Virus record (IMG/VR): IMGVR_UViG_3300005294_000012
Direction: 5' to 3' (one strand)
DNA: 20,000 nucleotides
Source of the DNA: an uncultured virus (IMG/VR IMGVR_UViG_3300005294_000012)
Taxonomy: Duplodnaviria > Heunggongvirae > Uroviricota > Caudoviricetes
In this document: piece after piece, positions 1 to 14,969 of the stretch
How positions within the stretch are numbered: the stretch's first letter is position 1
Layout: each line of letters opens with the position of its first letter
Notes under the pieces: model-generated
The model's input: the letters and a program-made list of their open reading frames with translations, nothing else
Told to the model about the DNA's origin: nothing
Databases searched by the model: none
Position numbers and translations under genes: made by a program

Positions 1-1
1 C

Positions 2-868
2 ATCCGTCATGGCGTACGCAGCACCCCGGATGGTCGAGCCCAGATGCACGTCACCATCACCCCTCGCGGCGATGACTTCGGATACCAAGGACGGATCGAG
101 CTGGACGCCTGGGAGCGACGTTGGGTGCACACCGTGAACAGCCTCAAAGCAGAAGATATCGACGCTCTGGCTGAGGACTGGGCCGACTCGATCGTGGCCA
201 AAAATCCTAATGAGCCCATCGAGATGGACCCGATAAGCACCACCGATGCGGTCTATTGGGCCGAGACGTTCACCAAGCGGTTCGGCGGGAAGTACATCAC
301 CGCCTACACAGCAGACCCTGAAGAGGGCGAGGTCGACTTCGGGACCATGGTGGCCTGGTTTGCCAATGCCATCGAAACTGGACGCAAAGCCGGTCATGTG
401 CAGATCGATCCGGAGGAGAAGCTGGTCGAGCTGCTACAGCGGAAGGTCGCCGGCCTCGAAGAGATGCTCGACCAGGAGCGGAAGAACAACAAGGCGCTGC
501 AGCAACACCTGGTCACCAAGAGCGAGGCTGTGCCCGATGAGGATGCGCTGCCCAAGGTGCCACTGGTGCCGGCAGATGACGTCGAGGCCAGCTTCATCGC
601 CGATCTGGACCGGCTGGTTGACGGGATGCGGGAGCGGATCCGGGTGCTGCAGCAATGGCGCACCAACCTGCTCAACGGCTCCGACCAATACGAGATCCAA
701 CGCAACGAGATCCAACGTCGCGAGGCCGCGCTCGATGACCAGATCGAGCAGGCGTATCTACGCGGCAAGGAGTTCGCAGTAACCCAAATCAAGAGCGGCC
801 TCGCCGACATCTGGTTCGGTGCAGACCCGCCACTACGAGAGGAGCAAGACCATGACGATGATCGATGA
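2..868 (+). CDS. Hypothetical phage protein, probably 5'-truncated, with C-terminal coiled coil
   Basis: Frame is open from position 2 through ATG 44 to TGA 868. Contains DAVYWAETF...MVAWFANAIETG and heptad-like segments. Confidence 0.75.
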   Translation: MRHGVRSTPDGRAQMHVTITPRGDDFGYQGRIELDAWERRWVHTVNSLKAEDIDALAEDWADSIVAKNPNEPIEMDPISTTDAVYWAETFTKRFGGKYITAYTADPEEGEVDFGTMVAWFANAIETGRKAGHVQIDPEEKLVELLQRKVAGLEEMLDQERKNNKALQQHLVTKSEAVPDEDALPKVPLVPADDVEASFIADLDRLVDGMRERIRVLQQWRTNLLNGSDQYEIQRNEIQRREAALDDQIEQAYLRGKEFAVTQIKSGLADIWFGADPPLREEQDHDDDR

Positions 869-1070
869 GCCGCGCTTGACCGACGCAGCGATCGCCCACC
901 GCAAGGACGTCGAGGCGATGCTGGCGCCCTTGCCACCGCACCCGGACGACCTGTTCATCCACATCTCGGGTGCTGACGTACCCGACAACGTTCCGGTGCA
1001 CGTCTGGCTGAAGTTCAAGGCCGAGGTGTACGCCTATATCGCGAACAAGCTCAAGGACCTCGGGACATGA
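852..1070 (+). CDS. Hypothetical protein
   Basis: ATG 852 preceded by GAGGAG; stop overlaps the next start (ATGA at 1067). Confidence 0.7.
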   Translation: MTMIDEPRLTDAAIAHRKDVEAMLAPLPPHPDDLFIHISGADVPDNVPVHVWLKFKAEVYAYIANKLKDLGT

Positions 1071-1564
1071 TGTTCTGGCGCAAGTGGTGGGGCAGCGCCT
1101 ACCGGAGGCGACTCCGCGAGCTCGAGCAACTCGCCGCGCAGAAGGCCGAAGGCGCGATGGGCCGGCACGTGCTGGTCAGTACGCGGAGCGGCAAGAAGGC
1201 GATGACCGAGGCTATGGTCGCCAAGGCGCAGGCCGAGGGCAAACAGGTCTTGATCTGGGATCCGAAAGGTGACCTCGAGGACTGGCCGGCGTACCTCCGT
1301 GAAGGGATCAGGATCGGCCAGTGGCCACGGTCGGGCAAGTCCCAGGTGATCGTCTCCGGTGGAGGCGGGATGGGCGGTTCGTACGACCAGCGCGCGCTAC
1401 AGATCATGACCGACGAGCTCGAGGGGCTGGCTGCGCAGCTGAACCTCTGGGCCGATGGCAACAACAAGACGACCACGCAGCGGGCCATCGCCACCGAGCA
1501 GCGCAACATCGCCCGCCAGCTGCGACAGATCGCCAAGGGAGGCAAGGCCGAGGATGGACGCTAG
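1067..1564 (+). CDS. Hypothetical protein with P-loop-like remnants
   Basis: ATGA-coupled start; contains HVLVSTRSGKK...VLIWDPKGD and PRSGKS. Confidence 0.7.
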   Translation: MMFWRKWWGSAYRRRLRELEQLAAQKAEGAMGRHVLVSTRSGKKAMTEAMVAKAQAEGKQVLIWDPKGDLEDWPAYLREGIRIGQWPRSGKSQVIVSGGGGMGGSYDQRALQIMTDELEGLAAQLNLWADGNNKTTTQRAIATEQRNIARQLRQIAKGGKAEDGR

Positions 1565-2183
1565 GTTCTCCCCGCAGCCCTGGACGCGGCCGGCCACGCC
1601 GAAGACCCAGCGCAAGCACGGCAACTTCCGAACCAGCTACACCCGGACCCTGGAGAAGCTGCAGTACGAGCTGGAGAAGATCGGCGCCACCGAGATTCTG
1701 TTCGAGTGTTCGTTCCACGCCAACCAGATCCGGCTCGACGGCTGGCCCAAGGCCAACCAGTCCCCGGAGTACAACGGGATCGCGGTCAGCTTCAACCATC
1801 CTGAAGTTGGCCGGGTCGAGTACGTCACCGACCGGTACTTCTTGTGGCAGGACAACCTGCACGCCATCGCCTTGACGCTGGAAGCGCTGCGCGGCGTCGA
1901 ACGCTGGGGTGTGGTCGCATCCGGCCAGCAATACACCGGGTTCAAGGCCATCGAATCGGGCAACGGATCGCGTCGGCCGGCAGCTGTGTGGATCGCCAAG
2001 CTGGTCGAACCCGACGACGCCGAGCGGCAGAAGGTCGTGGTCGACGGACTGCTGACCAAGTCCAGCCACATGACCAAGGTGGTGGTCCGACAGGCCAAGA
2101 TCCGGGCCCATCCAGACACCGGCGGCAGCCACGACATGTACCAGCTGCTCACCGAACGACTAGAGACATTGGGGTTGTCATGA
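1554..2183 (+). CDS. Phage DnaJ-like protein with C-terminal J-domain
   Basis: C-terminal AHPDTGGS (HPD motif); N-terminal RLDGWP...WQDNLHAIALTLEALRGVERWGV...QYTGFKAI is typical of this phage family. Confidence 0.85.
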   Translation: MDARFSPQPWTRPATPKTQRKHGNFRTSYTRTLEKLQYELEKIGATEILFECSFHANQIRLDGWPKANQSPEYNGIAVSFNHPEVGRVEYVTDRYFLWQDNLHAIALTLEALRGVERWGVVASGQQYTGFKAIESGNGSRRPAAVWIAKLVEPDDAERQKVVVDGLLTKSSHMTKVVVRQAKIRAHPDTGGSHDMYQLLTERLETLGLS

Positions 2184-2695
2184 GTGATTTGCAACCGTGG
2201 GGACGACCAGGCGGCGACAAGGGCCGGGTCAACTACGACACCATCAACGGCGGGCCCGAGATCGAATCGATCAACGGCGCCACCAAGAAGGGCGACAGCG
2301 GCTTCCACGATCCCTACCAGAAGCCGCCGGCAGGATTCGAGGACTGGCACCAGGTCGGGCAGTCCAACATGGACACGATCAACGAGGCCGCAGAACGGCA
2401 GAAGGCCCTGGAAGGCGCCGGGTTCAAGTACGACTCGAGCAACGGCACCTGGGTGGGACCGTCGGGCCGTACGACCACGCTGTTCGGCAACGATCCCGGC
2501 CCTGAGGGCGGCGTGGACTACCACTGGGATCGGCAGGGCGCAGGCAGCGAGCGAGGCCAGATCGAAGGCCAGTACGGCGACGATCCGCGCCGGCAGGGCG
2601 ACGACGACAAGGGCACCGAGATGCCTTCCGGGCTGAGCAGCTTTCTTGAGAAGTGGACCATCTGGGGGCGGATCCTGAAGCACTTCGGGCGGTGA
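2180..2695 (+). CDS. Hypothetical Gly/Asp-rich protein
   Basis: ATGA overlap at 2180 (MSDLQPWG...); high-GC3 codon use. Confidence 0.7.
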   Translation: MSDLQPWGRPGGDKGRVNYDTINGGPEIESINGATKKGDSGFHDPYQKPPAGFEDWHQVGQSNMDTINEAAERQKALEGAGFKYDSSNGTWVGPSGRTTTLFGNDPGPEGGVDYHWDRQGAGSERGQIEGQYGDDPRRQGDDDKGTEMPSGLSSFLEKWTIWGRILKHFGR

Positions 2696-2698
2696 GTC

Positions 2699-3196
2699 AT
2701 GGGTTGGGGCGACGATCAGGACGACCAGACCTGGGATGACGTCGCGTCCGACCGCAACCAGGAGCCGACCGACCGCTATCGCCGCGACCCGAACCAGCCC
2801 TACCGCTCCATCTGGGACGACCCCGATGATGATGAGGAGGAGAACCCGGCCGAAGGCTACAAGTACCGCAACAACGGTCTGGTCCAGAACAAGGGCAACA
2901 GCATCTGGGGCGCGCCGGCGCCCGGTACCCGGTGGGGCGACGGTCCGAACAACGTCGACCTGGACGATCATGGTGATCCGGTCGGACCGCGCGGCGGAGT
3001 CAGCTACGGCGGCTTCGGGTTCCACCGGGGGCAGACCGGGCACGGGGTCAAGACCAAGTACGACGACGTGCTGGCCAAGTACCAGACCATCCGCCATCCC
3101 GGCGGGGCGATGCGCAGGAAGATCAAGGCCGAACTGGAGCGCCGGATGCCGAAGGCCGAAGCGAGGAAGATCATGAAGGACCACAACTGGCTATGA
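2699..3196 (+). CDS. Hypothetical protein, acidic N-terminus and basic C-terminus
   Basis: Starts 3 nt after the previous stop; ATGA overlap downstream. Confidence 0.7.
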   Translation: MGWGDDQDDQTWDDVASDRNQEPTDRYRRDPNQPYRSIWDDPDDDEEENPAEGYKYRNNGLVQNKGNSIWGAPAPGTRWGDGPNNVDLDDHGDPVGPRGGVSYGGFGFHRGQTGHGVKTKYDDVLAKYQTIRHPGGAMRRKIKAELERRMPKAEARKIMKDHNWL

Positions 3197-3342
3197 CCTG
3201 GATGGAAATGCTGCACCAGCTGGCCGAGCGGAGCGCGACCGGATCGTTCGTCGCGTTGATGCTGCTCGGCCTGGTGCTCGGCGTTCCCGTGGTGACCTTC
3301 TTTGTGTGGCTGAACTCCCTTTTCGACGGGAGTAGGTCCTAA
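3193..3342 (+). CDS. Small membrane protein (49 aa), not in the ORF track
   Basis: ATGA overlap; MTWMEMLHQLAERSATGSFVALMLLGLVLGVPVVTFFVWLNSLFDGSRS has one hydrophobic helix and fills the gap before 3345. Confidence 0.7.
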   Translation: MTWMEMLHQLAERSATGSFVALMLLGLVLGVPVVTFFVWLNSLFDGSRS

Positions 3343-3344
3343 TT

Positions 3345-4745
3345 ATGGCCAGGCGTCCCGGCATGATCCGATACGGCAGTTTCGCCGAGGTGACCAACGG
3401 TGTCATCGGTTTCGTGCCGTGGGTCAAAGACAAGGTGCGGCGCTATATCTGGGGCATTGTCTGGCCCGGGATATTCGCAATTACGATGACGTGCCTGCTG
3501 GCTTATGGCCAGCACAAAATGGCCGAGATATTCGCCTCCGCCTCGATCGCCTTGGTCACGATCAAGCTGTTCATGGTCGCCTCGCAGCTGATATTGATGG
3601 GTTTCACGGCGGCGTTGCTGTGGGGAATGCACCACACCTCGCAGGCGGTGATGCCCACATTCAGTGTGGAGATTCCGCGTTTCGAGCCGCGTCCACCGCC
3701 GAACCTGGAGGCCGGCGAGACCTGGGAAGAGTGGCTCCGCAAGGGCGTACGCATCGGCCGTTGGCAGGGTGAGGTCGGGTCGCTCGAGCCCGGTGACATC
3801 TGCTGGATGCCGATCGTGGACGTCCACCCGTTCATCGCGGCCGAGTCCCGGATGGGCAAGTCGACGCTGCTCTGGGCGATCCTGTGGGAGCTGAAGCCGG
3901 CCATCGAGGCGGGCGTGGTCGAGATCATCTTGTTCGACCCGAAGAACGGCATGGAGATGGCGCCGGCAGTGGCGCTGGGTCTGGTCAAGTCCATGGAGCG
4001 GATGGGCCGTCCCGAGGGCATGGTGGACGAGGTCGATAACTTCTTCTACGGCCAAGACGTCGGGCACCCGGACCCGAACAATCCCGAGCGCTGGATCGGC
4101 AAGAAGTACGAGGAGACGTTCGTCCCGCCGCTGGAGCACCACGTGCAGCTGATGCGGGAACGCGCTTCTGAGGTGCGCGGTTCGATGCAGTGGATTCCGG
4201 CCAGCCGGAAGCATCCGCGCCGCATCGTGATCGTGGACGAGGGCGCCTCGCTGGCCCGCCCGTCGGCCAACCTGAACACCCGGCAGCGGATCATCTCCGC
4301 GATGCTGAACCTCTGCGACCAGGGCGCAGGCGCCGGCTACACGATCATCACCGCGACCCAGCATCCCGACGTCAAGAAGGTGCCGTGGCGCCACGGTCTG
4401 ATCGGTGCCGGCCTGTGTGGCCGGGTCAAGACCTGGGACGCGGTCGACATGGTGCTGGGCCGGGGCAGCTACGCGCGCGGCGCCTGGGGCGATCAGCTGA
4501 GCTCCAAGGTCAAGGGCGTGTTCTTCATGTCCGGTCACGGCGCCTGGCAGCTGCGGGTGCAGAACGCCAAGCCGAAGTTCACCCGGAAGCCTCCGGACCG
4601 TGGCGGCGGTAAGGAGATCGAGGAGTTCAACCCGAGTTCGGAGCCGACCAACGCGCAGCTGGCGCAGGTGGTGCCGCTCCGTAACCGCAACATCTGGCCG
4701 GTCCGGGAGAACGTCGGCGGGGACCGCGAAGTAGGGGCCGCATGA
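3345..4745 (+). CDS. Membrane-anchored FtsK/SpoIIIE (TraB-like) translocase-family protein
   Basis: N-terminal hydrophobic segments; Walker A AESRMGKST; IILFDPK; Walker B IVIVDE; GAGAGYTIITATQHP matches the FtsK GRaaGI...aTQRP block. Confidence 0.85.
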   Translation: MARRPGMIRYGSFAEVTNGVIGFVPWVKDKVRRYIWGIVWPGIFAITMTCLLAYGQHKMAEIFASASIALVTIKLFMVASQLILMGFTAALLWGMHHTSQAVMPTFSVEIPRFEPRPPPNLEAGETWEEWLRKGVRIGRWQGEVGSLEPGDICWMPIVDVHPFIAAESRMGKSTLLWAILWELKPAIEAGVVEIILFDPKNGMEMAPAVALGLVKSMERMGRPEGMVDEVDNFFYGQDVGHPDPNNPERWIGKKYEETFVPPLEHHVQLMRERASEVRGSMQWIPASRKHPRRIVIVDEGASLARPSANLNTRQRIISAMLNLCDQGAGAGYTIITATQHPDVKKVPWRHGLIGAGLCGRVKTWDAVDMVLGRGSYARGAWGDQLSSKVKGVFFMSGHGAWQLRVQNAKPKFTRKPPDRGGGKEIEEFNPSSEPTNAQLAQVVPLRNRNIWPVRENVGGDREVGAA

Positions 4746-4746
4746 G

Positions 4747-5283
4747 ATGGTTACCCGACTTCAGATCGTTGACGACCCGGGTGAGGACGACCGCGACGAG
4801 GAGGCTGCCGGCGTCCCGCAGCGGGAACGCGCGGCCAACATAATGGGCACCGAGCGCCGCCAGCTGATCATCGAGCTGGCCCGGGGTACCCGGCGGATCG
4901 TTGATCTTGCCTTCGAGCACGAACGCCCGCCGCAGGTCATCTCGAATTTCAAATACCGGAATAAGCAGGAGATCCTGCAGATGCGACGGGTGCTGGATTC
5001 CAAAACAGCTGATCTACATTTCGCAATTCAGCTGCACCGAATCGCCGATGCCGAGCGCCATCTGGCCTTTCTCGATGATCAGATCCGCAGAATGCAGGAG
5101 GGATTCCTGGACGGCGAGGAGGTCGACACCAAGGAATTGCGAGGTCTTATCGCCGACGCGTCGAAACTTCGTAAGGAGATCCGCGAGGAATTGAAGCCGA
5201 CCATGTCCCTGGGCGATATTCAGGTGACCCCGTCGAAGAAATACGGAGGCCAAAACTGGTTTGGTGAGGAGGGCGAGACATGA
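4747..5283 (+). CDS. Putative terminase small subunit-like protein
   Basis: Coupled by ATGA to the terminase large subunit homologue; HTH-like N-terminus followed by helical segments. The call rests mostly on position. Confidence 0.55.
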   Translation: MVTRLQIVDDPGEDDRDEEAAGVPQRERAANIMGTERRQLIIELARGTRRIVDLAFEHERPPQVISNFKYRNKQEILQMRRVLDSKTADLHFAIQLHRIADAERHLAFLDDQIRRMQEGFLDGEEVDTKELRGLIADASKLRKEIREELKPTMSLGDIQVTPSKKYGGQNWFGEEGET

Positions 5284-6575
5284 GTATGCCTGTTCTCCTC
5301 GACGACTACGTGGCGATCGGTTCCAACTGGGAGGCGTGCACAGCTACCGAGCAGGAGGTGATCGTCACCGGTCAATCGGGCAGCGGGAAGACCCGCGCGC
5401 TGCTGGAAAAGGTCCATCGGGCTTGCAAGGAGTTCACCAACATCAAGGTGTTGCTGCTGCGCAAGCGCAGTGCTGATCTGGCCGGCAGCGCTCTGGAGTT
5501 GTTCCGTGATCATGTCGCTGGGCCGGCGCTGCACACCGGTGAGGTGAGGTTCTTCGACGCTTCCCGCTCGGAGCCGGCGCGCTATGAGTACCGCAACAGC
5601 GGGTCGATGATCGTGCTGGGTGGGCTGTGGCCTCCGACGCAGGCGACCAAGGTCACCAACTCGGAGTGGGACATCGTCTGTGTGATCGCGGCGAACGAGC
5701 TGACCGAGCACGACTGGGAGCTACTGATCCCGCTATGCCGCAACGGGTCGCTGCCGATCAACCAGCTGATCGGAGAATGCCAGCCACAAGGCGATGATCA
5801 CTGGATCCTGCAGCGCGCCAAGCGCGGCCAGCTGCGACTCATCGAGGGCGTCATCGAGGACAACCCGCGCTGGTTCCGCAACGGCGAGATAACCAGGGAG
5901 GGACGGGCCTTCATCGCCAAGCTGGACGCTCTCACCGGGGTCACCAAGCTGCGCAACCGGTACGGCTACTGGGTGGCCGCACAAGGCCAGTGCTGGCCCA
6001 GCTACAACGACAAGGTCCACCTGATCGAGCCGTTCCCGTTCCCGTTCCACTGGCCCACCTGGTGGAGCATCGACTTCGGGAAGGTGCACCCGTTCGCGTT
6101 CGGGCTGTTCACCATGGACCCCAACGGCCGAGCGTTCCTAGTGAAGCAGATCCACATGTCCGGCCGGGAGACCGAGGAGCACTGCCGCGACATCCTGCGG
6201 ATCACCCAGCCGTACGCCTCGCCGACCGACATCATCACCGATCACGCGGCCAACGACGTGGCGATCTGTGAGCGGATGTTCGGCCGCAAGGTGGTCTTGG
6301 CCAACAAGTCCGTACTCGAGGGCATCGACTACGTGGAGAAGCGGTGGGCGCAGCGCAAGCTGTTCATCTTCGATGACTCCCTGGTCGAGATCGATGAGAC
6401 GTTGCGGTCGCGTGGCCGGCCGATCGACCTGCAGTCGGAGATCCCGGGGTACGTGTGGCAGTCGGGCAAGCGTTCCAAGGAGGGCCCGGTGAAGGCCTGG
6501 GACGATAGTTGTGACATGACGCGTTACTTCATCGCCGAGCAGGACGCGCCCGAGCAGTGGGAGGTGAGCTGGTGA
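5280..6575 (+). CDS. Terminase large subunit homologue (PBSX-like) with degenerate Walker B
   Basis: Walker A GQSGSGKT; HW and DNP motifs; nuclease-domain carboxylates in SIDFG..HPF, ITDH and DDSCDMTRY. Confidence 0.9.
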   Translation: MSMPVLLDDYVAIGSNWEACTATEQEVIVTGQSGSGKTRALLEKVHRACKEFTNIKVLLLRKRSADLAGSALELFRDHVAGPALHTGEVRFFDASRSEPARYEYRNSGSMIVLGGLWPPTQATKVTNSEWDIVCVIAANELTEHDWELLIPLCRNGSLPINQLIGECQPQGDDHWILQRAKRGQLRLIEGVIEDNPRWFRNGEITREGRAFIAKLDALTGVTKLRNRYGYWVAAQGQCWPSYNDKVHLIEPFPFPFHWPTWWSIDFGKVHPFAFGLFTMDPNGRAFLVKQIHMSGRETEEHCRDILRITQPYASPTDIITDHAANDVAICERMFGRKVVLANKSVLEGIDYVEKRWAQRKLFIFDDSLVEIDETLRSRGRPIDLQSEIPGYVWQSGKRSKEGPVKAWDDSCDMTRYFIAEQDAPEQWEVSW

Positions 6576-6763
6576 GCGCTCTAGGCGAGTACGCCGTCAA
6601 GACGGTCGCGGCAGGCATGGCCTTGATCAAGATGCTGGGGTTTCTCAAGACCGAGGACGAGAGCCTGGTACTGACCCGCGCCGAGGTGGAGGCGATCATC
6701 ATGACGATCCGCGAACAGGCGACAGAACTCAAACTTCGCAATATCAGGGGGCGGCAGCGGTGA
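6572..6763 (+). CDS. Hypothetical protein (63 aa)
   Basis: GTGA overlap with the terminase stop, preceded by GGAGG. Confidence 0.65.
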   Translation: MSALGEYAVKTVAAGMALIKMLGFLKTEDESLVLTRAEVEAIIMTIREQATELKLRNIRGRQR

Positions 6764-6873
6764 TCCCGATGATGATGGTCGACTGGAACCGGCCGATGTG
6801 GGTGATCTTCATGATCTGCATGACCGTGATCATCTGTGTGACGATCAGCAATCTGCACCGGTGGTTCAAGTGA
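6760..6873 (+). CDS. Membrane micropeptide (37 aa)
   Basis: GTGA overlaps at both ends; MIPMMMVDWNRPMWVIFMICMTVIICVTISNLHRWFK. Confidence 0.6.
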   Translation: MIPMMMVDWNRPMWVIFMICMTVIICVTISNLHRWFK

Positions 6874-6950
6874 AAGACGGCTGGAGCCTGGTCCGCTTCT
6901 GCATGGTCTTGGTGATCATTGCAGTGGTTGCAAACGAGTTGCTGAAGTGA
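6870..6950 (+). CDS. Membrane micropeptide (26 aa)
   Basis: GTGA overlaps at both ends; MKDGWSLVRFCMVLVIIAVVANELLK. Confidence 0.55.
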   Translation: MKDGWSLVRFCMVLVIIAVVANELLK

Positions 6951-7582
6951 TTAGCGTTGCAGCTGTCGGCCGGCCGTTCCGGTACGCCGGGATGTTCTCC
7001 GCCGCCGGCGCCAGCTGGATCTCTCGGAAGCTGGATCCCAAGGTGGACCGGGAGATCATGACTGAGATCGGTGAGCGGAAGGTGCTGGAGATTCGCAAGC
7101 ACTGGTTCGCCTCGAACTGGGCGATGATCCGGATCTTGTTCAGTGCGATCGTGCTGGGCTGGTTGACGGCGCTGACGCCCGAGCACTGGTATGAGTGGGT
7201 CGGTTTCTTCTGGGTGGTCTGGGTGATCATCTTCATCGCCACCCGCGCGGTGTGGCGGGTGCTGGAGCACTACCGGGACCGGTTCGTGATCACCAACCAG
7301 CGGATCCTGCGCTGTGATGGGGTAGTCGGCACCGATACCGCGATGATTCCGTTGAAGCGGATCACTGACATCACCGTCAAGCAGTCGGTGTGGGGGAAGC
7401 TGTTCAACTACGGCCACATGATCTTCGAGTCCGCCGGCCAGGTGCAGGGGCTGAACGAGATCCGCTACGTGGCCAACCCGCGCAAGCGCAAGCGCATCCT
7501 GCTGATCGCCATGAACGGCGACAATCCCGAGGCCCTGGTCCTCGACCCGTCCGAGGGGAACCCCAATGACGATGGCACCTGA
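6947..7582 (+). CDS. Bacterial PH-domain (bPH_2) membrane protein
   Basis: IRKHW, two TM helices, then RFVITNQRIL...GV...IPLKRITDITVKQSVWGKLFNYGHMIFESAG. Confidence 0.85.
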   Translation: MISVAAVGRPFRYAGMFSAAGASWISRKLDPKVDREIMTEIGERKVLEIRKHWFASNWAMIRILFSAIVLGWLTALTPEHWYEWVGFFWVVWVIIFIATRAVWRVLEHYRDRFVITNQRILRCDGVVGTDTAMIPLKRITDITVKQSVWGKLFNYGHMIFESAGQVQGLNEIRYVANPRKRKRILLIAMNGDNPEALVLDPSEGNPNDDGT

Positions 7583-7739
7583 GCAGATCCTGTTCTCGAT
7601 CGGACTGCTGCTCTGGCTGTTCGCCTGGATCGCCATCTTGCTCGAACTGCTGTACCACCTGGTGCGCTTCGAGATCTACCTGTGCAGGAAGCTCCGCCGG
7701 ATGATCAAAGCAAGACGGTCGGATCCCATCCCTCAGTGA
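7566..7739 (+). CDS. Small membrane protein (57 aa), not in the ORF track
   Basis: GAGGGG upstream; MTMAPEQILFSIGLLLWLFAWIAILLELLYHLVRFEIYLCRKLRRMIKARRSDPIPQ; 3' end overlaps the convergent PadR gene. Confidence 0.6.
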   Translation: MTMAPEQILFSIGLLLWLFAWIAILLELLYHLVRFEIYLCRKLRRMIKARRSDPIPQ

Positions 7740-7962
7740 TCTGGTAGACCCGCCGGCGGGGGCGTCCTGGCTCGAGATCGGGCTCGTGCTCCCAGGTGCT
7801 GGAGAGGCAGTGCTCGCGCTCGAGCCTGGCCAGAATCGGATAGACCACCCCGCTCGCTACGCCGGCGCGTACGGCGACCTCGTAGCCATAGATGCTTTCC
7901 TCCTCGTCGCGGAGTTGGATGATCGCTCGGACCACGGCTTTGACGGCCATCGTTTTCTTCAT
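7705..7962 (-). CDS. PadR-family winged-helix transcriptional regulator
   Basis: YGYEV...SGVVYPILARLE...STWE...GRPRRRVYQIT; likely ATG at 7962. Confidence 0.9.
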   Translation of the reverse strand: MKKTMAVKAVVRAIIQLRDEEESIYGYEVAVRAGVASGVVYPILARLEREHCLSSTWEHEPDLEPGRPRRRVYQITEGWDPTVLL

Positions 7963-7969
7963 AATCCGT

Positions 7970-7998
7970 ATGCTACATGTGTTGACTACGACCCGCAA
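7970..7998 (-). promoter_or_regulatory. Sigma70-type promoter for the PadR gene (probably leaderless)
   Basis: Minus strand reads TTGCGG-17nt-TAGCAT-7nt-ATG, with no SD sequence. Confidence 0.6.
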
Positions 7999-8010
7999 CT
8001 AGTTCATAAT
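7982..8010 (+). promoter_or_regulatory. Sigma70-type promoter for the rightward small-gene operon (probably leaderless)
   Basis: TTGACT-17nt-CATAAT-6nt-ATG(8017). Confidence 0.8.
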
Positions 8011-8016
8011 TGAGGT

Positions 8017-8223
8017 ATGGCCAAACAAGACTTGCAGAACGGCATCGAGGACATCGTCAACATCCTCAGCGACCTCCCCAACGATCAGGTCAAGATCATC
8101 GACCGCCTCGACACGATCACCGATCTGCTGCAGCGCATCGCAGTCGCCATGGAAACCCGCGAACTCCGCGAGGCTGGCCTCCCCAAGCACGCCGATCTCC
8201 TCCAGAAAGGGCGAGTGTCATGA
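8017..8223 (+). CDS. Hypothetical helical protein
   Basis: First gene after the promoter; ATGA-coupled to the next gene. Confidence 0.75.
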   Translation: MAKQDLQNGIEDIVNILSDLPNDQVKIIDRLDTITDLLQRIAVAMETRELREAGLPKHADLLQKGRVS

Positions 8224-8483
8224 CCTTCCGCCGCACCCCGTTCATCCCGTACGACACCTCCAGCTGGACCGCTAGCCCGGAGTGCATGGACGTCAGCTAC
8301 GCCGTCGCCCAAGAGCGCGCCCCCGAGGCTGGCGTCCCTCTCCGCCGCCCGACCGAGACCGACGAGGAGTACGCCGAGCGCAACGAGTCCGAGATCGAGA
8401 TGACTCCCTGGACCGAGAACGAGCCCGAGACCTACGCCGAGACCCTGGGCCTCGACGACTACGACGTGGTGAACGACCGATGA
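8220..8483 (+). CDS. Hypothetical acidic protein
   Basis: ATGA overlaps at both ends; Glu/Asp-rich C-terminus. Confidence 0.75.
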   Translation: MTFRRTPFIPYDTSSWTASPECMDVSYAVAQERAPEAGVPLRRPTETDEEYAERNESEIEMTPWTENEPETYAETLGLDDYDVVNDR

Positions 8484-8680
8484 AGCACTGGACCGAGGGC
8501 CGGATGAAGCTCCAGATGGTTGCGCTGGGGATGGCTGCGGTCCTTCTCGTCGTCACCATGGTTCCCGACGGCAAGCCCAGCATTATCGCCATCGTCTGCG
8601 CAGTCTCAGCACTCGTCAGCTGGGTCTCGAAACGCCTCTCCCTGTACGCCGAACTCCAAGACCAGGAGGACCAGTCATGA
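8480..8680 (+). CDS. Small two-TM membrane protein
   Basis: ATGA overlaps; two hydrophobic helices. Confidence 0.7.
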   Translation: MKHWTEGRMKLQMVALGMAAVLLVVTMVPDGKPSIIAIVCAVSALVSWVSKRLSLYAELQDQEDQS

Positions 8681-8880
8681 CCCCCGAACAGCTCTCCAAG
8701 ATCATCGCCGCATTCCCCAACGACTCCAAGCGCCATCACCACGCGCTGATCCGCCAGCTGGCGCAGCAGTGCTTGCAGTCAGGCTTCGAGGCCACCATGC
8801 TCAAGGCTCATGTTGATGGCCTCCGCGCCGAGTTGGCCAAGAAGCCTGTCCCGTTCAAGGCCGATTGCGACGCAGCATGA
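8677..8880 (+). CDS. Hypothetical protein
   Basis: AGGAGG SD and ATGA overlaps. Confidence 0.75.
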   Translation: MTPEQLSKIIAAFPNDSKRHHHALIRQLAQQCLQSGFEATMLKAHVDGLRAELAKKPVPFKADCDAA

Positions 8881-9077
8881 AGCCCTGCGAAGTCTGCGGC
8901 AGCGATCACTGGGCCATATCGGTCCAGTGTTTCGTCTGTGAGCACAAGGTCAAGCCGCCGACCCAAGCTCAGATCATGATGGCCCGTCTGCACATCCAGC
9001 TGCACGCCGCCGGCGACGAGGAGATCACCGAGGGGATGTGGGCCATCGCCGGCTTACCGCTCGAGGTGCACACATGA
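8877..9077 (+). CDS. Small zinc-ribbon protein
   Basis: CEVC...CFVC; ATGA overlaps. Confidence 0.7.
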   Translation: MKPCEVCGSDHWAISVQCFVCEHKVKPPTQAQIMMARLHIQLHAAGDEEITEGMWAIAGLPLEVHT

Positions 9078-9256
9078 GCTTTGAGGAGCAGATCAAGGAC
9101 CTGCGCGAAGGCTGCCCGTGCTGGACCAACGGCGCCCGCCTCGGCCACGAGGGCCACTGCTGTTTCCTGATCGATGACCGCGAAGGCAAGCCGATCAGCC
9201 AGTGCTGGCGTGAAACCGACGACATTTGCCACGTGCCGCCGAAGGTGAAGCGTTGA
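9074..9256 (+). CDS. Small Cys/His-rich protein
   Basis: GAGGT SD; CPC...HEGHCC...CH. Confidence 0.7.
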   Translation: MSFEEQIKDLREGCPCWTNGARLGHEGHCCFLIDDREGKPISQCWRETDDICHVPPKVKR

Positions 9257-9468
9257 AGCTCAGCAAGTCCTGCTCTCGGGGTTGGCACGGCAGATGCAGG
9301 GGCCTGATCTGGCCTCTCGGGCCCAAAGGCACCACGAACGTCCTGTGTCGCTGCACCTGCCACGAAGCGCATCCCACTACCGTGACCGAATGGCCACCCG
9401 AGAACGCTCCCCGCGAACCGTCAAAACTATCGACACCGAGCTGGCCCAAGCGGCCTACCGGCGGATGA
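9253..9468 (+). CDS. Small putative Zn-binding protein
   Basis: TTGA overlap start; C..GWH..C...CRCTCH. Confidence 0.6.
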   Translation: MKLSKSCSRGWHGRCRGLIWPLGPKGTTNVLCRCTCHEAHPTTVTEWPPENAPREPSKLSTPSWPKRPTGG

Positions 9469-9557
9469 TGCACGGCGACAACGAGATCTCGCGGCGCTCC
9501 AACATGAGCGCGATCGATGTTCTGTTGGATGAGCGTCTGCGCGTCGCCGGCCGATAG
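9390..9557 (+). CDS. Hypothetical protein
   Basis: Ends IDVLLDERL; overlaps the previous ORF by about 80 nt, so the start is uncertain. Confidence 0.55.
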   Translation: MATRERSPRTVKTIDTELAQAAYRRMMHGDNEISRRSNMSAIDVLLDERLRVAGR

Positions 9558-9619
9558 CTGAGAAATTCCCGATAGCTTTCGATCGGAATATTCCTCTCGG
9601 CTCTGTGAAAGGGCACCAC

Positions 9620-10732
9620 ATGAAGCGATCGGGGCGCTTACGGCGCGTCTTCGCAGGCTTCGCAGTGATGGGGATTCTCGGCGGCGGCATCACTGCGCTG
9701 ACCGAGACGCCAGCGTTCGCGGCATGGCCAGCGACCATCAAGATCTGTAACTCGACCTCCTCGGAAGACACCAACGGTGGCGGCACCGATGGCAAGAACA
9801 TCGACGTCGATCGGTTGCCAGGCAGCTCGTACGGCACCTACTCGAACGAGTTGCTGCCTGGCGACTGCACCGGGAACGTCAACGACCCGGCGAACGTCCG
9901 CATCGACGCGACCGACGACGGCGCGAACTACTCAGCCGCCGGCTCATTCCAGGTTGGAATCGACCAGGACGGCATCGACGACGGTCAAAGCACCTACGAC
10001 CCGGCATGCGCCAACACCGCCTCGATCAGCAATGAGAACGCCTACCCGGTGCCGCAGACCGCTGCGGAGCATGTCGTGGCCGGCTACGGCCTTGAGGTTC
10101 GCCTCCAGACTCGCACCTCGTGTGGTGCGGATGACCCGAACTTCGGGCGGATCTGCTCCGACTCTGGCAGCTACGACGACTTCGACGCTGAGGGCATCGG
10201 CACGAACACCTACAACAACAACCTGCCTCCAGGTGAGTGCACGGCGTTCTTCCCGGTCGCAGCTGCCGGAACCGAAGGCACCGAGAACGAGTACGAGGCC
10301 AACCGGATGCTCGCCGACCTGTCGGACGACAACTCGGCTGGTGAGACGGTGGCGTACAAGTGGAAGGACAACTACCAGCAGACCACTCTCACGCACTGCG
10401 AGCAGACCTTCTCCACGGAGCTGGGCGGCACATCTGGCACCGGCTGGGATGTACCAGTCCAGCACGACCCCACCACCGGCGCCCTGGTCGCCGGTAAGAC
10501 GGTGACGATTAAGACCTTCCTCGGCAATCAGGATCCTGACGAGGGAATCTGCGGTCTTGAGGCTCCGGTCGTGAGCTCGTTCGTGGACGAGAGCGCCTAC
10601 GGCAAGGCGACTGACACCGACTACGCGGAGGGCCAGGGCACTGACCCGGGAGACAGCCTCCCCACAGAGCAGGTGACGTGGCCATACCAGACCACGACCA
10701 CCGAGCCTCTCGGCGAACCGGATGGGAGCTAG
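9620..10732 (+). CDS. Secreted acidic protein with two tandem four-Cys domains
   Basis: GAAAGGG SD; signal peptide ending TPAFAA; internal repeat. Confidence 0.85.
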   Translation: MKRSGRLRRVFAGFAVMGILGGGITALTETPAFAAWPATIKICNSTSSEDTNGGGTDGKNIDVDRLPGSSYGTYSNELLPGDCTGNVNDPANVRIDATDDGANYSAAGSFQVGIDQDGIDDGQSTYDPACANTASISNENAYPVPQTAAEHVVAGYGLEVRLQTRTSCGADDPNFGRICSDSGSYDDFDAEGIGTNTYNNNLPPGECTAFFPVAAAGTEGTENEYEANRMLADLSDDNSAGETVAYKWKDNYQQTTLTHCEQTFSTELGGTSGTGWDVPVQHDPTTGALVAGKTVTIKTFLGNQDPDEGICGLEAPVVSSFVDESAYGKATDTDYAEGQGTDPGDSLPTEQVTWPYQTTTTEPLGEPDGS

Positions 10733-10735
10733 ATC

Positions 10736-11176
10736 ATGAATATCAAGAAGAGACTCCTCGCCCTGCTAGTGGCGATCCCGTTCTTGGCGATCATGATCAC
10801 CGGGATGACGGCGCCGGCAGCCTCGGCAGGCGACAACGCCTACACCGGCACGAAGTTCCTCTCGGTCGACTACGACATGATCAAGATGTGCCACAACTGG
10901 GCGACGAACACCTGTTCGAGCACCTCGGGCAACAAGAAGTTCATCTGGAAGAACAGCAGCTACTACCGTTGCACCAGCACCAACCTCAATGCGTGCGGGT
11001 CCAACGCCTTCAACTGGAACGACAGCGACGGGTTCTACCTGCCTTCCGGCTGGAAGGCTGCGACCAACGTCATGGGCATTCCGACAGGCTGGGTGCATTA
11101 CGGCCTGTGGGATGGCTACTGGAACAAGGTTGGCGACTGCGGGTGCTGGAAGTACATCAAGAGGTACCCGAAGTAG
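10736..11176 (+). CDS. Secreted Cys/Trp-rich protein
   Basis: Sec signal peptide ending PAASA; six Cys in the mature part; DSDGFYLPSG...GYWNKV. Confidence 0.85.
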   Translation: MNIKKRLLALLVAIPFLAIMITGMTAPAASAGDNAYTGTKFLSVDYDMIKMCHNWATNTCSSTSGNKKFIWKNSSYYRCTSTNLNACGSNAFNWNDSDGFYLPSGWKAATNVMGIPTGWVHYGLWDGYWNKVGDCGCWKYIKRYPK

Positions 11177-11707
11177 GTGAATAAGCGCCTCTGGCTCGTA
11201 GGGGTGGCGGCGGTCCTGTTGTCCGCCGTCACCGCCGTGCTCATCTACGTGAACGCATCCAAAGACGACGGTAAGTGGCGGCCCGATCAGGAGAACTGGC
11301 CGCCCGCGCAAATTTGGGGACAAGGTGAGGAAGGCAAGGATCTGCCTGCCGACTTCACCCCACCGAGGCCGCAGATCGAGGTGCTGTGGTCCGCCTATCG
11401 ACCCGGGTTCAAGAAAGAGATCGACCGGGCGGGAGACGCTGGGGACTGTGCGGCTCTCAACAGATACTTCGATGACGCCGCCGCTACCGACACTCAGGAC
11501 CGGCTAGCTCTAACCTACATCGACCGGTGGGGAATGCACTTGGAATGCCGCGAGTTCCTCGGGGACAGCGGTGACCCGTCCAAGCCCGTAGCTCCCGACG
11601 CCTACATGATCTGCGAACCGGAGGGCAAGAAGGCCCAGACCCCAGGTGGGACCAAAGTGGTCTGCAAGAAAGGCGCTGACGGCTCGCTCCGCTGGCAGAA
11701 GAGGTGA
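11177..11707 (+). CDS. Membrane-anchored extracellular protein
   Basis: N-terminal TM helix; C-terminal C.PEG...GG...VC...DGSLRW mini-domain. Confidence 0.8.
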   Translation: MNKRLWLVGVAAVLLSAVTAVLIYVNASKDDGKWRPDQENWPPAQIWGQGEEGKDLPADFTPPRPQIEVLWSAYRPGFKKEIDRAGDAGDCAALNRYFDDAAATDTQDRLALTYIDRWGMHLECREFLGDSGDPSKPVAPDAYMICEPEGKKAQTPGGTKVVCKKGADGSLRWQKR

Positions 11708-11717
11708 CGCAGATCAC

Positions 11718-11747
11718 TTGCCGCCTCAGCGTTACCACAGGTAACGT
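11718..11747 (+). promoter_or_regulatory. Candidate promoter overlapped by an operator-like inverted repeat
   Basis: TTGCCG-18nt-TAACGT; CGTTACC-aca-GGTAACG at 11730-11746. Confidence 0.45.
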
Positions 11748-11874
11748 GCTGTAACGGAAATGCGCACGGGGGAGCCGGCACTGTCGGCTGCATGGGGCGC
11801 CGCCTGTTGGGGGCGAGCTCGGGGGATGATTGGTGGGTCCGGCGATGTCAGGCCATGGCGCCGGACCCTTCCAA

Positions 11875-11947
11875 TCCTCGGTAGCTCAGCCGGCAGAGCG
11901 TCGGATTGTTAATCCGCAGGTCGCTGGTTCGAATCCAGCCCGGGGAG
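11875..11947 (+). tRNA. tRNA-Asn (GTT)
   Basis: Acceptor stem TCCTCGG/CCGGGGA; D arm GCTC/GAGC; anticodon loop TT-GTT-AA; T arm GCTGG-TTCGAAT-CCAGC; discriminator G; CCA not fully encoded (CCG). Confidence 0.95.
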
Positions 11948-11963
11948 CCGTAACCTGATCAGC

Positions 11964-12245
11964 ATGGCAACCTTCAACCCGCTCAAGTCGGCAGACAACG
12001 AGCCGGCGGAAGGCACCGAGTACGGCGGTCGGCCCGGATTCATCCAGCCCAAGTCTCTCGGCCACAACATCGACGCTCCTGATCATGTCGCCGAGAAGGT
12101 GGCGATCATCCACTTCGAGGCCTTCCATTCGGCCCAGGTGATGGAAGACCTGCCCCCGACTGACGAGCACTACGATGCCGTCCTGGAGCTCCAGACGTTG
12201 AGAGCCGCGCGACTCGGCGAGTACACGATCGAAGATGCGCTCTAG
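11964..12245 (+). CDS. Hypothetical protein
   Basis: 93-aa ORF just downstream of the tRNA with phage-like codon usage. Confidence 0.7.
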   Translation: MATFNPLKSADNEPAEGTEYGGRPGFIQPKSLGHNIDAPDHVAEKVAIIHFEAFHSAQVMEDLPPTDEHYDAVLELQTLRAARLGEYTIEDAL

Positions 12246-12292
12246 CTAGGTAAGCTCACCCGCGAGGCCATGATGGGGGAAAGGTCTCACGC

Positions 12293-14644
12293 ATGCCCAC
12301 GGTCAAGATGATCAACCCGGTGACCTTTGACGAGATCACCGTTGACGGCGGACAAGCCGATTACTGGGCCAACAAAGGCTGGGTCCAGATCCTCAACACT
12401 CCGGACGGGGTCTTCTGGGGTACCCCAGGGGCCAATCCGGTGGTCGCCCGCCCCTTGATCGAAAAGCTGCAGTCCGCCACCGAGTACGCGGCTGTGGCCG
12501 TGTTTGGCGACAACTCGGCGAACGCCAACACCGAGTGGTTCTTCCAGCTGATGCAGTGGCTGACGCTGAAATTCCCGGCCTACTCGGTCACCCATCTCAG
12601 CTGGAACGACACCCTGCAGTTCTGGGACAACCTCAGCCAGGCCGCTGGGATCAACTACCAGATGCAAACCGGTACCGCCGGCGACGCGTACGTCGATTTC
12701 ACCGGCGCCGGCACTCTGACCACCCCCAACGTTGCCGCACTGCAACTCACCGGCAGCCTGGACATCCGGGTCAAGGCCCGCGCCAACGACTGGACGCCGG
12801 CAGCCAACATGGTGCTCACCTCCAAGTACGGTGCCGCCGGCCAGCGCAGCTGGCGCTTCTACCTCTCCACAGCTGGCAATCTGATCCTGGAAGTCAGCAC
12901 CGACGGCACCGCGACAGCGGCAGCCACCTCCTCGGTAACCACCGGCCTCACAGACGGTACGGACAGCTGGGTCCGGGCCACTCTCGCGGCCTCCTCCGGA
13001 GCGGTGAACTTCTACCTCTCCACCGACGGTGTCACCTGGACACCACTCGGCACCCAGCAGACCATCGCCGGCTCCCCGCTGACGCTGTTCAACTCCACCC
13101 AGGCCCCCGAGGTCGGCGGGCGCGGTGGTGGCACCGAGCCGTGGTCCGGCCGGATCTACTACGTCGAATGGCGCTCCGGGCTGGACACCGCAGGCGAGCC
13201 CCGGCTGATCTTGGACCTGGACACCGCGATCGGTTCGGCAGCCGACATGTCCGGCGGCACCAACACGTTCAACGACTACGCAGGGCGAGTGTGGACGATC
13301 TCCACCTCGGCCCTGGTCTTCGGCGGAGCCCCCGGCATCGTGCTGTTCAACGGGTCCGGGCCGGCCACCGCGATCACCTACTCCAACGACGGCACCCGAG
13401 GCCCGAAGCAGCGCGCGATCATCGCCCCCGACATCGCCATGATCAACTACGGGCTGAGCGACGGTGGGCAGACCTACCGCACCGCGTACAAGCAGCTGGC
13501 CGACGCGTTCATCGCAGCCTGGGCCGACGTCGGCGTGGTGGCTGTGGTGCAGCCCCCGAAGGTGGCGCCGGCAACCTCTGTTCAGATCAAGCAGCACGCT
13601 GTCAGAAACCGTCAGATCGTCTCGCTCGCGCAGTCCCAGCGCTACGGTGTCATCGATGCTTTCTTGAGCTTCACCAAGGACCCGCGCGGCGCTGTCGCGT
13701 TGATGGACGGTACCGGGGTGATGCCCAACACTGACGGCTGGGCAGCCTGGCTGGATGCCGGGAAGCGTTTCTTCATCGACGTGATGGCCTCGGACTCGAT
13801 CTCTGAGCCGGCGATTAACGGCTTTCAGCCTTTCGTCTCGGTCAAGGTTGACAGGATCCTCGGTAGCGGCAACTGGAACAAGCCGGTCGGCGCCCGCGCC
13901 CACTATGTGGCCATCTTGGGCCCAGGCGCCGGCGGCGGCTCTGGCCGGCGAGGGGCAGCTGGCACCCAGTGTGGCGGTGGCGGTGGCGGTGGCGCCGGCG
14001 CCAAGGCCGTCTCCTGGTTCGCCTCCTCGAGCCTCACCGATGTGGTTGCTGTCAGCATCGGTACCGGTGGCGCCGGCGGTGCTGCGGTCACAGTCGACGA
14101 CACCGACGGCAACGCGGGATCCGCCGGATCCCAGTCGAGCGTCTTCGGGTCTTACCTGCTGGCAGCCAGGGGCCAGTCCGGCGGCGGAGGCGGCACAGCA
14201 GCTGCAGGCGGTGCTGCCGGGACCTCAGCCGGCTCTGTGGGTTCTGGCGGTGCTGGTGGTGCTTCAGGAGCTGGCGCTGCTGCCTCCTCGGCAGTGGCCG
14301 GGGCTGGCAACGGTGGCGGCGGTGGAGCCGGTATCACCTCCGGTGGCACGGCGAACACCGGTGGAGTGGCTTTCCCGCCGTGGGATGCCAACCAGACCTC
14401 GACCAGCGGCGGCGCAATCAACGGCTCCGGATCTGACGGTGTCGACCGGATCATCGGCGAGGCCCTCGGCGGTTACGGCGGAGGCGGTGGCGGATCTTCT
14501 GTCACCGGTCCTGGCGGAGCTGGTGGCAAGGGCGGCAAATACGGCGCAGCTGGTGGCGGCGGCGGAGCGTCTCGCAACGGCAACAACTCCGGTAAAGGCG
14601 GCGACGGTGCCGACGGCATCTGCGTCGTGGTATCGGTCTTCTAG
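12293..14644 (+). CDS. Probable minor tail/virion protein: SGNH-like fold with inserted LamG/concanavalin-like domain and Gly-rich C-terminus
   Basis: VAVFGD block, PDIAMINYG and GVMPN blocks; LDIRVKA...WVRATL...VNFYLS insert; GGGGGG-rich tail ending GGDGADGICVVVSVF. Confidence 0.8.
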   Translation: MPTVKMINPVTFDEITVDGGQADYWANKGWVQILNTPDGVFWGTPGANPVVARPLIEKLQSATEYAAVAVFGDNSANANTEWFFQLMQWLTLKFPAYSVTHLSWNDTLQFWDNLSQAAGINYQMQTGTAGDAYVDFTGAGTLTTPNVAALQLTGSLDIRVKARANDWTPAANMVLTSKYGAAGQRSWRFYLSTAGNLILEVSTDGTATAAATSSVTTGLTDGTDSWVRATLAASSGAVNFYLSTDGVTWTPLGTQQTIAGSPLTLFNSTQAPEVGGRGGGTEPWSGRIYYVEWRSGLDTAGEPRLILDLDTAIGSAADMSGGTNTFNDYAGRVWTISTSALVFGGAPGIVLFNGSGPATAITYSNDGTRGPKQRAIIAPDIAMINYGLSDGGQTYRTAYKQLADAFIAAWADVGVVAVVQPPKVAPATSVQIKQHAVRNRQIVSLAQSQRYGVIDAFLSFTKDPRGAVALMDGTGVMPNTDGWAAWLDAGKRFFIDVMASDSISEPAINGFQPFVSVKVDRILGSGNWNKPVGARAHYVAILGPGAGGGSGRRGAAGTQCGGGGGGGAGAKAVSWFASSSLTDVVAVSIGTGGAGGAAVTVDDTDGNAGSAGSQSSVFGSYLLAARGQSGGGGGTAAAGGAAGTSAGSVGSGGAGGASGAGAAASSAVAGAGNGGGGGAGITSGGTANTGGVAFPPWDANQTSTSGGAINGSGSDGVDRIIGEALGGYGGGGGGSSVTGPGGAGGKGGKYGAAGGGGGASRNGNNSGKGGDGADGICVVVSVF

Positions 14645-14653
14645 GGGGAGAGC

Positions 14654-14737
14654 ATGAACGGCAACGCTGTAATCGGGACCGTCATCGGAGTTCTGGTGAT
14701 CATCATCTTGGTCTTAGTGGTCTTGCGCCTGACATGA
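14654..14737 (+). CDS. Membrane micropeptide (27 aa)
   Basis: GGGGGAG SD; MNGNAVIGTVIGVLVIIILVLVVLRLT. Confidence 0.65.
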   Translation: MNGNAVIGTVIGVLVIIILVLVVLRLT

Positions 14738-14814: not shown

Positions 14815-14969
14815 CGAGGTTCGGTCGAGACCCTCATACTGGCCCGTAATTAGTAATTGCTCGACCAACGTAAGCGGCCTCGGAGTGAGGGACATCAGGC
14901 TAGCCTTCCCCTGCGAGCGAGTGCCGACCATCCTCCGAGGCCGAGACGACCCTACCGGAAAGACTGACC

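Follow-up and report, generated by a model that had tools for sequence, protein, structure and literature searches.

A phage cassette that links genes for a membrane-anchored FtsK-like ATPase and a terminase pair lacking a motor residue

A 20,000-nucleotide stretch of DNA from an uncultured tailed phage (IMG/VR IMGVR_UViG_3300005294_000012; Caudoviricetes), hereafter the window, carries on its + strand a cassette at positions 3193-7739 in which the gene for a membrane-anchored FtsK-like ATPase is followed by a terminase-like pair, TerS-A and TerL-A, and by the gene for a YdbS-like membrane protein with a bPH_2 domain (Table 1). The gene content, its conservation in other phages and the pattern of residues lost and kept in TerL-A point to an undescribed form of DNA handling at the cell membrane rather than to ordinary capsid packaging. 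The conserved core is five genes, encoding a small membrane peptide, the FtsK-like ATPase, the TerS-like protein, the TerL-like protein and the YdbS-like bPH protein. We propose, with a probability of about 0.4, that these form an accessory machine at the membrane, where DNA would be recognised and cut by the terminase pair and moved by the FtsK-like motor.

TerL-A shares with the packaging terminases of the P1312/Dagobah type a homology that extends over the full length (38.8% identity over 100% of the TerL of Thermobifida phage P1312, and 34.7% with that of Dagobah), the nuclease aspartates and an overlapping upstream gene for a small subunit. It differs from them in the motor. We compared seven TerL copies linked to an FtsK-like gene (from the window, from its 93%-identical relative L007, from L008 and from the more distant contigs L003 to L006; six of the seven are full-length) with the TerLs of the same clade collected from 80 further loci. 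The column of the catalytic Walker B glutamate holds Ala in the window and Ala, Asn or Gly in every one of the seven linked copies, whereas all 81 free-standing sequences with this column covered keep the glutamate. As for the Walker A lysine, it is present in 80 of 81 free-standing sequences and has been lost from four of the seven linked copies, those of L003 to L006; the window's own copy retains it (GSGKT). The four nuclease aspartates (D265, D321, D408 and D412 in TerL-A) are kept in 6/6 full-length linked copies and are invariant or nearly so across 40 sequences. Judged by these residues, the linked TerL is predicted to be a motor-dead protein, which has lost the glutamate for ATP hydrolysis and has its nuclease residues intact, and the 'degenerate TerL' of the original prediction, made from the letters of the window alone, takes on a precise meaning.

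A Dagobah-type portal gene lies within 3 kb in 51 of the 64 free-standing relatives that have at least 2.5 kb of downstream sequence, whereas none was found anywhere in the available sequence of the FtsK-linked loci. In a maximum-likelihood TerL tree of 84 rows, from which eight loci and one extra fragment of an open reading frame (ORF) were omitted as duplicates, fragments or odd ORF calls, the linked TerLs make up one side of a branch with a Shimodaira-Hasegawa-like approximate likelihood ratio (SH-aLRT) of 99, and they probably share a single origin. Their stems are long (1.42 and 0.81, where the median end branch is 0.3). Both domains of TerL-A are about equally diverged from the free-standing relatives; when the two linked subclades are compared with each other, conservation is somewhat lower in the ATPase-like half (31%) than in the nuclease half (39%). 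A viral search with the single TerL-A sequence gave no match. Decay of TerL-A into a pseudogene was considered and rejected, given the intact frame and a ratio of nonsynonymous to synonymous change (dN/dS) of 0.12 against L007.

In four IMG/VR contigs (L003 to L006) there is a gene for a relative of the FtsK-like protein, 38-40% identical to it. All four have the same order of genes, namely bPH, small membrane protein, FtsK-like, a protein of about 150 aa and TerL-A, and in each of them the FtsK-like and 150-aa genes overlap by 4 nt. Thus FtsK-, TerS-, TerL-like and bPH genes stand together in every contig found with an FtsK relative, and the mosaic juxtaposition that the original prediction had named as its refutation is not upheld. 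Only the FtsK-like protein, TerL-A and the bPH protein, out of 35 window proteins, gave long matches in these contigs, and neither the tail protein of the window nor its PHROG 9210 protein had a match in the whole records G001 to G003 of the relatives. The cassette appears to travel as a unit between phages that share almost nothing else detectable. Purifying selection acts on the core genes, with dN/dS against L007 ranging from 0.036 (bPH) through 0.058 (FtsK-like) to 0.15 (TerS-A). Chance juxtaposition was also tried as an explanation and rejected, on the recurrence of the linkage in the four contigs and on the search around free-standing TerL relatives, where the FtsK-like family was found within 6 kb at 0 of 80 loci.

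Three of these relatives (L003, L005 and L006) have a second set of genes 1-5 kb downstream, consisting of TerS-B (PHROG 10899), TerL-B (PHROG 2, E 1e-42 to 1e-44) and a portal (PHROG 64), along with head-morphogenesis and scaffold genes; the fourth contig, L004, ends 3.9 kb after TerL-A and is too short to show such a set. Since three of the four relatives possess a separate canonical TerS, TerL and portal, the FtsK-linked pair is not their packaging terminase. According to CheckV, one of the relatives' records is 100% complete and another 94%. In all four contigs the cassette heads the strand that bears the packaging and head genes. The best reading of these comparisons is that the cassette is accessory and mobile between actinophages, and that, in the relatives with visible genomes at least, it does not serve as the terminase for capsid packaging.

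For the window's own phage, it could still be argued that TerS-A and TerL-A are the working packaging terminase and that the FtsK-like gene is an ordinary accessory gene, upstream by chance. We consider this very unlikely. It draws on the 20 kb of the window, where PHROG and Pfam scans of the scanned genes, and a search for Dagobah-type portals, revealed no second TerL and no portal, and on the Walker A lysine that the window's TerL-A keeps; both are among the points to be set against our proposal below. FtsK/SpoIIIE-like genes of unknown role are also reported for several Streptomyces phages (PMC13587820) and for P1312, as ORF63 (PMC4569894). Against a packaging role stand the alanine in place of a glutamate that no free-standing relative has lost, the want of a portal after TerL-A where most of those relatives have one, and the separate canonical terminase of the sister lineage. 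There is, moreover, a gene at 16524-17195 of the window for a 223-aa protein that matches PHROG 10899, 'terminase small subunit', with E 1.1e-10, and that weakly resembles the genes just upstream of TerL-B in L003 and L005. No TerL follows it within the window, and the next genes (316, 157, 190 and 154 aa) have no packaging matches; a viral search with the 316-aa protein gave no match. The gene at 16524-17195 hints at a second packaging set that lies partly outside the window.

A different possibility is that TerS-A and TerL-A act without the FtsK-like protein, as crippled look-alikes that poison or redirect the terminases of competing P1312/Dagobah-type phages or satellites, or as immunity decoys, their neighbours being unrelated morons. 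The pair does belong to a terminase lineage other than that of the carrier's TerL-B, and it has lost the motor glutamate. We nonetheless hold this to be distinctly unlikely, as FtsK and bPH stay linked to the pair in two different phage backgrounds, at no more than 33-40% protein identity and with overlapping stop and start codons, as the FtsK family is missing from the surroundings of the free-standing relatives, and as a pure decoy would have no need of four nuclease aspartates.

The FtsK-like protein begins with a two-helix membrane hairpin (residues 34-95). It has no Pfam family at E <= 0.1, so that PF01580 is not matched directly; however, the profile of its family retrieves 3712 proteins at E <= 1e-3, and among 20 of these that were scanned, 17 match PF01580 above the cut-off, one below it and two not at all. 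A search of 5.8 billion clustered proteins yielded 14 homologues, all of them metagenomic, and 14/14 sequences show no variation in the Walker A GKS, the Walker B DE or a TQ-x-P motif. No relative was found by tblastn at E <= 1e-5 in 50,697 phage records, and the family appears to be absent from every cultured phage on record. Neither a search with the FtsK profile over the contigs of one genome per species nor a viral search with a profile of more distant family members gave a relative, and a contig search of the same type with the distant cellular relative P0037 gave just generic FtsK genes of Firmicutes and of one Planctomycetota metagenome-assembled genome (MAG).

The kinship to FtsK/TraB-like translocases that had been suggested for this protein is upheld by its nearest relatives. 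Among 72,556 plasmids, three records matched, the best match being the Tra protein of Micromonospora pMR2 (27% identity over 259 aa, pairwise E 5e-22). The nearest solved structure is that of TcpA, the coupling protein of plasmid pCW3 of Clostridium perfringens (PDB 6o1w), which comes first both by profile against the PDB sequences (E 5.8e-9, with FtsK at 1.1e-5) and by fold (E 4.8e-7, template modelling (TM) score 0.46 on the target), although identity is only 16-18%. The fold search used an AlphaFold2 (AF2) model with a mean predicted local distance difference test (pLDDT) of 63.7, and it returned TcpA, EccC/EssC, FtsK and HerA, with HerA at rank 26 (E 9.5e-5).

The EccC/EssC matches raise the question of whether the ATPase might be a motor for protein export, in which case the cassette would secrete or insert a protein cargo. 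These domains hold ranks 4-7 of the fold search (E 3.8e-6 to 6e-6), and a membrane anchor with membrane-protein partners would be in keeping with such a role. But the best matches by sequence and by fold are DNA motors, the conserved partners are DNA enzymes, and EccC and EssC have three ATPase domains, whereas the FtsK-like protein has one. Protein export is therefore extremely unlikely in our estimate.

TerS-A, the putative recognition subunit, starts 1 nt past the stop of the FtsK-like gene and overlaps the start of TerL-A by 4 nt. It has no match in Pfam, PHROG or NCBIfam. A TerS profile built solely from 32 small proteins encoded upstream of free-standing TerL relatives, and run on 5470 ORFs, gave an E of 1.4e-3 for the copy of the window, and of 4e-9 (L003) to 1.7e-4 for the counterparts in L003 to L006 and L008. 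The AF2 model (pLDDT 76) has three short helices at residues 35-71 and a long helical hairpin at 73-149, with pLDDT above 84 there, in keeping with the TerS architecture of an N-terminal helix-turn-helix (HTH) and oligomerising helices behind it. Foldseek returned nothing at E <= 0.001, its top row being the small terminase of phage G20C (E 0.87), and a wide VIA-align search gave generic helical hairpins only.

The other two members of the core are membrane proteins. The bPH protein has two membrane helices (residues 58-106) ahead of its bPH_2 domain, and is 40-48% identical to the product of a gene 0.6 kb upstream of FtsK in L003 to L006. It has 173 homologues at E <= 1e-3, with PF03703 in all 120 among the matches listed, and is 44-50% identical to chromosomal actinobacterial proteins of the YdbS/YdbT type, two of which are named and come from Propionibacteriaceae MAGs. 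A literature search for bPH_2 in phages led to nothing. A small protein with an N-terminal membrane helix is encoded directly upstream of the FtsK-like gene in 7/7 loci with a visible flank (the window, L007, a further locus L009, and L003 to L006). The 49-aa form of the window is 90% identical in L007, with a dN/dS of 0.39 that derives from just 9 changes, and its counterparts in L003 to L006 are proteins of 99-125 aa with an added CxxC...CxxC tail, which the window's peptide does not have. This two-CxxC tail is cytoplasmic and zinc-ribbon-like, and follows the membrane helix in L003 (9627-10004), L004 (9523-9840), L005 (1871-2230) and L006 (9678-9977).

We propose that the cassette arose by capture of a terminase pair from the P1312/Dagobah lineage. 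The pair would have parted from its portal and lost the catalytic glutamate of its ATPase while retaining its RNase-H-type nuclease, and would have become translationally coupled to a membrane-anchored ATPase of the FtsK/TraB/TcpA kind. TerS-A would bind a site on the DNA and TerL-A would cut it, giving a free duplex end that TerL-A could no longer translocate. The crippled ATPase domain of TerL-A may then serve as an adaptor, through which the end would be handed to a hexameric FtsK-like motor. This motor, anchored in the cytoplasmic membrane with the small peptide and the bPH protein as its neighbours, would pump double-stranded DNA at or through the membrane. We infer contact between these proteins, as well as the substrate and the direction of transport. 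The role that we favour is to move phage DNA across a membrane or septum without a capsid. That a tailed phage has in this way rebuilt a conjugation-like export from viral parts, allowing its DNA to spread without particles between cells or hyphal compartments, is a bolder claim and, as it stands, an unlikely one.

The layout of the cassette mirrors that of a conjugative relaxosome with its coupling protein, and that of TraB with its Spd proteins, the terminase parts taking over DNA recognition and processing. TcpA shares the topology of the FtsK-like protein, in which a single FtsK-like ATPase domain comes after an N-terminal membrane anchor. It works with a relaxase in the transfer of single-stranded DNA through a type IV-like apparatus, whereas the cassette contains neither a relaxase nor a secretion apparatus. 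TraB transfers an uncut double-stranded plasmid, while in the cassette recognition and cutting of DNA would fall to the terminase-derived pair. The TraB/Tra and Spd systems, as in pSVH1 and pMR2, resemble the cassette in having a membrane-associated FtsK-like ATPase whose gene is tightly clustered with those of several small hydrophobic proteins, and the alignment with the Tra of pMR2 (WP_011265188.1) covers Walker A, Walker B and TQ-x-P. The carrier here is a phage and lacks rep, int and xis genes, whereas TraB systems are borne by plasmids or actinomycete integrative and conjugative elements (AICEs); pMR2, an integrative conjugative plasmid, is laid out like an AICE, with int, xis, rep and Tra, after which come small hypothetical genes and one of the DUF2637 family. 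No homologue of Spd or DUF2637 was detected. TraB of pSVH1 assembles with the Spd proteins into a multiprotein complex for DNA translocation (PMC4447253).

The pairing of an FtsK/HerA-superfamily ATPase gene with a neighbouring gene for an RNase-H-fold nuclease is also that of HerA-NurA. In contrast to the proteins of the cassette, however, HerA lacks a membrane anchor and NurA is no terminase, nor does that system include a TerS-like partner. A search of the full-text literature gave no description of a cassette of FtsK with a crippled TerL, in agreement with the novelty claimed at the outset; the cassette is new as a combination and is assembled from known kinds of parts. The nearest item concerns the Bacillus phages Sam46 and Sam112, in which TerS is described as fused with an FtsK gamma domain (PMC8190038).

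The same proteins might instead act together at the membrane to capture DNA and destroy it, the motor feeding an incoming rival genome or the host chromosome to the TerL-A nuclease, for superinfection exclusion or for breakdown of host DNA. Such a device would be akin to HerA-NurA, or to defence systems that are triggered at the membrane and recruit a nuclease. Retention of the nuclease residues with loss of the TerL motor residue fits a translocase that feeds a nuclease, HerA is among the fold matches, the PHROGs class of both the FtsK-like and bPH proteins is 'moron, auxiliary metabolic gene and host takeover', and the carriers look lytic. The FtsK-like protein also matches the PADLOC model mad8 (E 1.8e-9), but that match is limited to the generic P-loop core, and no other protein of the cassette fits a defence model. 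Site recognition by a TerS-like protein is not expected for indiscriminate degradation, and a position at the head of the strand for packaging and head genes, as in L003 to L006, is atypical of early exclusion genes. The characterised membrane-anchored DNA motors of the FtsK family (FtsK, SpoIIIE, TraB and TcpA) all move DNA, and none of them is known to degrade it. Capture and degradation is unlikely in our estimate.

Several observations weigh against the machine for DNA movement that we propose, in addition to those that favour a packaging role in the window's own phage. The identification of TerS is weak for the window's own copy, for which the profile E is 1.4e-3 and the best fold E 0.87. 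The grouping of the linked TerLs in a single clade brings two long branches together, and long-branch attraction could contribute to it. The fold scores of EccC/EssC nearly equal that of TcpA, so that the substrate need not be DNA. No C-terminal winged-helix domain, which in TraB serves clt recognition, is seen in the FtsK-like protein; there is no Pfam match to FtsK_gamma, and residues 408-466 are modelled with one short helix at pLDDT below 50. Fused or longer forms of the FtsK-like protein, including an FtsK-terminase fusion, were not found, which is weak evidence. The named cellular homologues of the bPH protein come from Propionibacteriaceae, and the host may therefore not be mycelial. 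Finally, no tyrosine integrase, serine recombinase or ParA was matched in G001 to G003; the carriers thus look lytic, and the advantage that they would gain from exporting DNA is not evident.

The genes of the cassette form part of a longer run. Nine abutting or overlapping ORFs had been predicted between 3193 and 7739, six of them encoding membrane proteins, with a convergent PadR gene at the end, and this arrangement is confirmed. The junctions range from a 2-nt gap to a 19-nt overlap, a third-position GC (GC3) of 0.80-0.92 favours coding in eight of the nine ORFs, and a Kyte-Doolittle scan places membrane helices in the 49-aa, FtsK-like, 37-aa, 50-aa, bPH and 57-aa proteins. The linkage continues beyond the predicted limit, the + strand being a single unbroken gene run of high GC3 from 44 to 7739; the gene at 2699-3196 shares 4 nt with the start of the cassette, from which it follows that the operon extends upstream of 3193. 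At the other end, the PadR gene overlaps the run by 35 nt.

Table 1. Genes of the cassette and of its downstream boundary, in window coordinates
Feature	Coordinates	Strand	Basis or properties
49-aa single-pass membrane peptide	3193-3342	+	Helix at residues 13-45; GC3 0.86
FtsK/TraB/TcpA-like P-loop ATPase, 466 aa	3345-4745	+	PHROG 1358 'FtsK/SpoIIIE-like', E 8.6e-13
TerS-like DNA-binding protein (TerS-A, putative), 178 aa	4747-5283	+	Position upstream of TerL-A, predicted fold, weak profile match
TerL-derived protein (TerL-A), 431 aa	5280-6575	+	Three PHROG terminase families; P1312 TerL homology
68-aa ORF, variable	6557-6763	+	GC3 0.80; no hydrophobic segment
37-aa single-pass membrane peptide	6760-6873	+	GC3 0.92; helix at residues 9-34
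50-aa ORF as listed	6798-6950	+	Coding-like frame only after 6860 (last 77 nt)
26-aa membrane peptide (probable), variable	6870-6950	+	GTG at 6870 overlaps the stop of the preceding ORF
YdbS-like membrane protein with bPH_2, 211 aa	6947-7582	+	PF03703 E 1.3e-11, 45 bits against a cut-off of 22; PHROG 3707
57-aa single-pass membrane peptide	7566-7739	+	Helix at residues 6-35; GC3 0.83
PadR-family regulator	7705-7998	-	PF03551 E 8.2e-9, 35.8 bits against a cut-off of 27

Two elements of the predicted unit are not supported. PadR, named as the point where it ends, is present in L007 and absent from L003 to L006; it is a boundary, outside the conserved core. Nor is there support for counting all the micropeptides in the unit. 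The 50-aa ORF is coding-like only in its final part, so that the real gene is more likely the 26-aa peptide from the GTG at 6870. In comparison with L007, the whole 68-aa ORF lies within an insertion of about 200 bp and the 77-bp stretch 6874-6950 is missing from that relative; since both are insertions, the set of small peptides varies. The 37-aa peptide is 75% identical to a 42-aa ORF of L007, and the 57-aa peptide, for which no counterpart was found in L003 to L006, is 95% identical there. The junctions at 6760, 6870 and 6947 are all GTGA stop/start overlaps, two of which read AAGTGA. Micropeptide cassettes at 6557-6950 look as if they are gained and lost as units.

The rest of the window looks like an uncultured soil actinophage, with no close DNA relative among the 50,697 phage records. 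Directly upstream of the cassette are genes for two acidic, low-complexity proteins rich in Gly, Asp and Trp (about 2186-2695, and 2699-3196, the one that overlaps the first gene of the cassette), which are 40-54% conserved in L009 and have no family match; the gene before them, at 1455-2183, belongs to PHROG 9210, a family of unknown function. A repeat scan of positions 1-12500 revealed no clt- or pac-like array, and promoter and terminator scans of the same region were at the level of chance (2 promoter-like sites with 1.8 expected, and 8 terminator-like sites with 6.8 expected). One sigma-70-like site at 7982-8010 (TTGACT, 17 nt, CATAAT; 10/12 matches) spans the start of PadR on the - strand, just upstream of a + strand gene at 8017. 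It suggests that a new transcription unit starts near 7982-8010, the promoter scan as a whole being at chance level.

Further downstream, window and L007 share only 26-56% protein identity at 9373-11704, between flanks of 90-95% DNA identity, and a tRNA-Asn (GTT) at 11875-11949 (ARAGORN; 66.6 bits in Rfam) lies at the edge of this variable region. The stretch most diverged from L007, 9605-11707, encodes three successive proteins (375, 146 and 176 aa), each with an N-terminal hydrophobic helix and no family match. Matches to minor-tail and tail-fibre PHROGs occupy 12293-16321 and include a 334-aa protein (15317-16321) that has a domain of the glycerophosphodiester phosphodiesterase family (Pfam GDPD, E 1e-23) and also matches a tail-fibre PHROG; it may be a tail enzyme that degrades the cell envelope.

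Terminases are known as packaging motors that dock at a portal, and pumps of the FtsK/TraB type from chromosome segregation and from conjugation in actinomycetes. If a membrane FtsK-like motor is indeed coupled to the nuclease half of a terminase in a conserved cassette, the two types of machine would divide their labour in a new way, and the cassette offers a clear example of how a duplicated terminase is recruited to another task. A cassette that destroys DNA would be a new phage-borne device for exclusion or takeover. If it moves DNA, the boundary between phage infection and conjugation would be blurred, and the passing of a DNA end to a membrane motor instead of a portal would provide a second, particle-free route by which a virus may spread.

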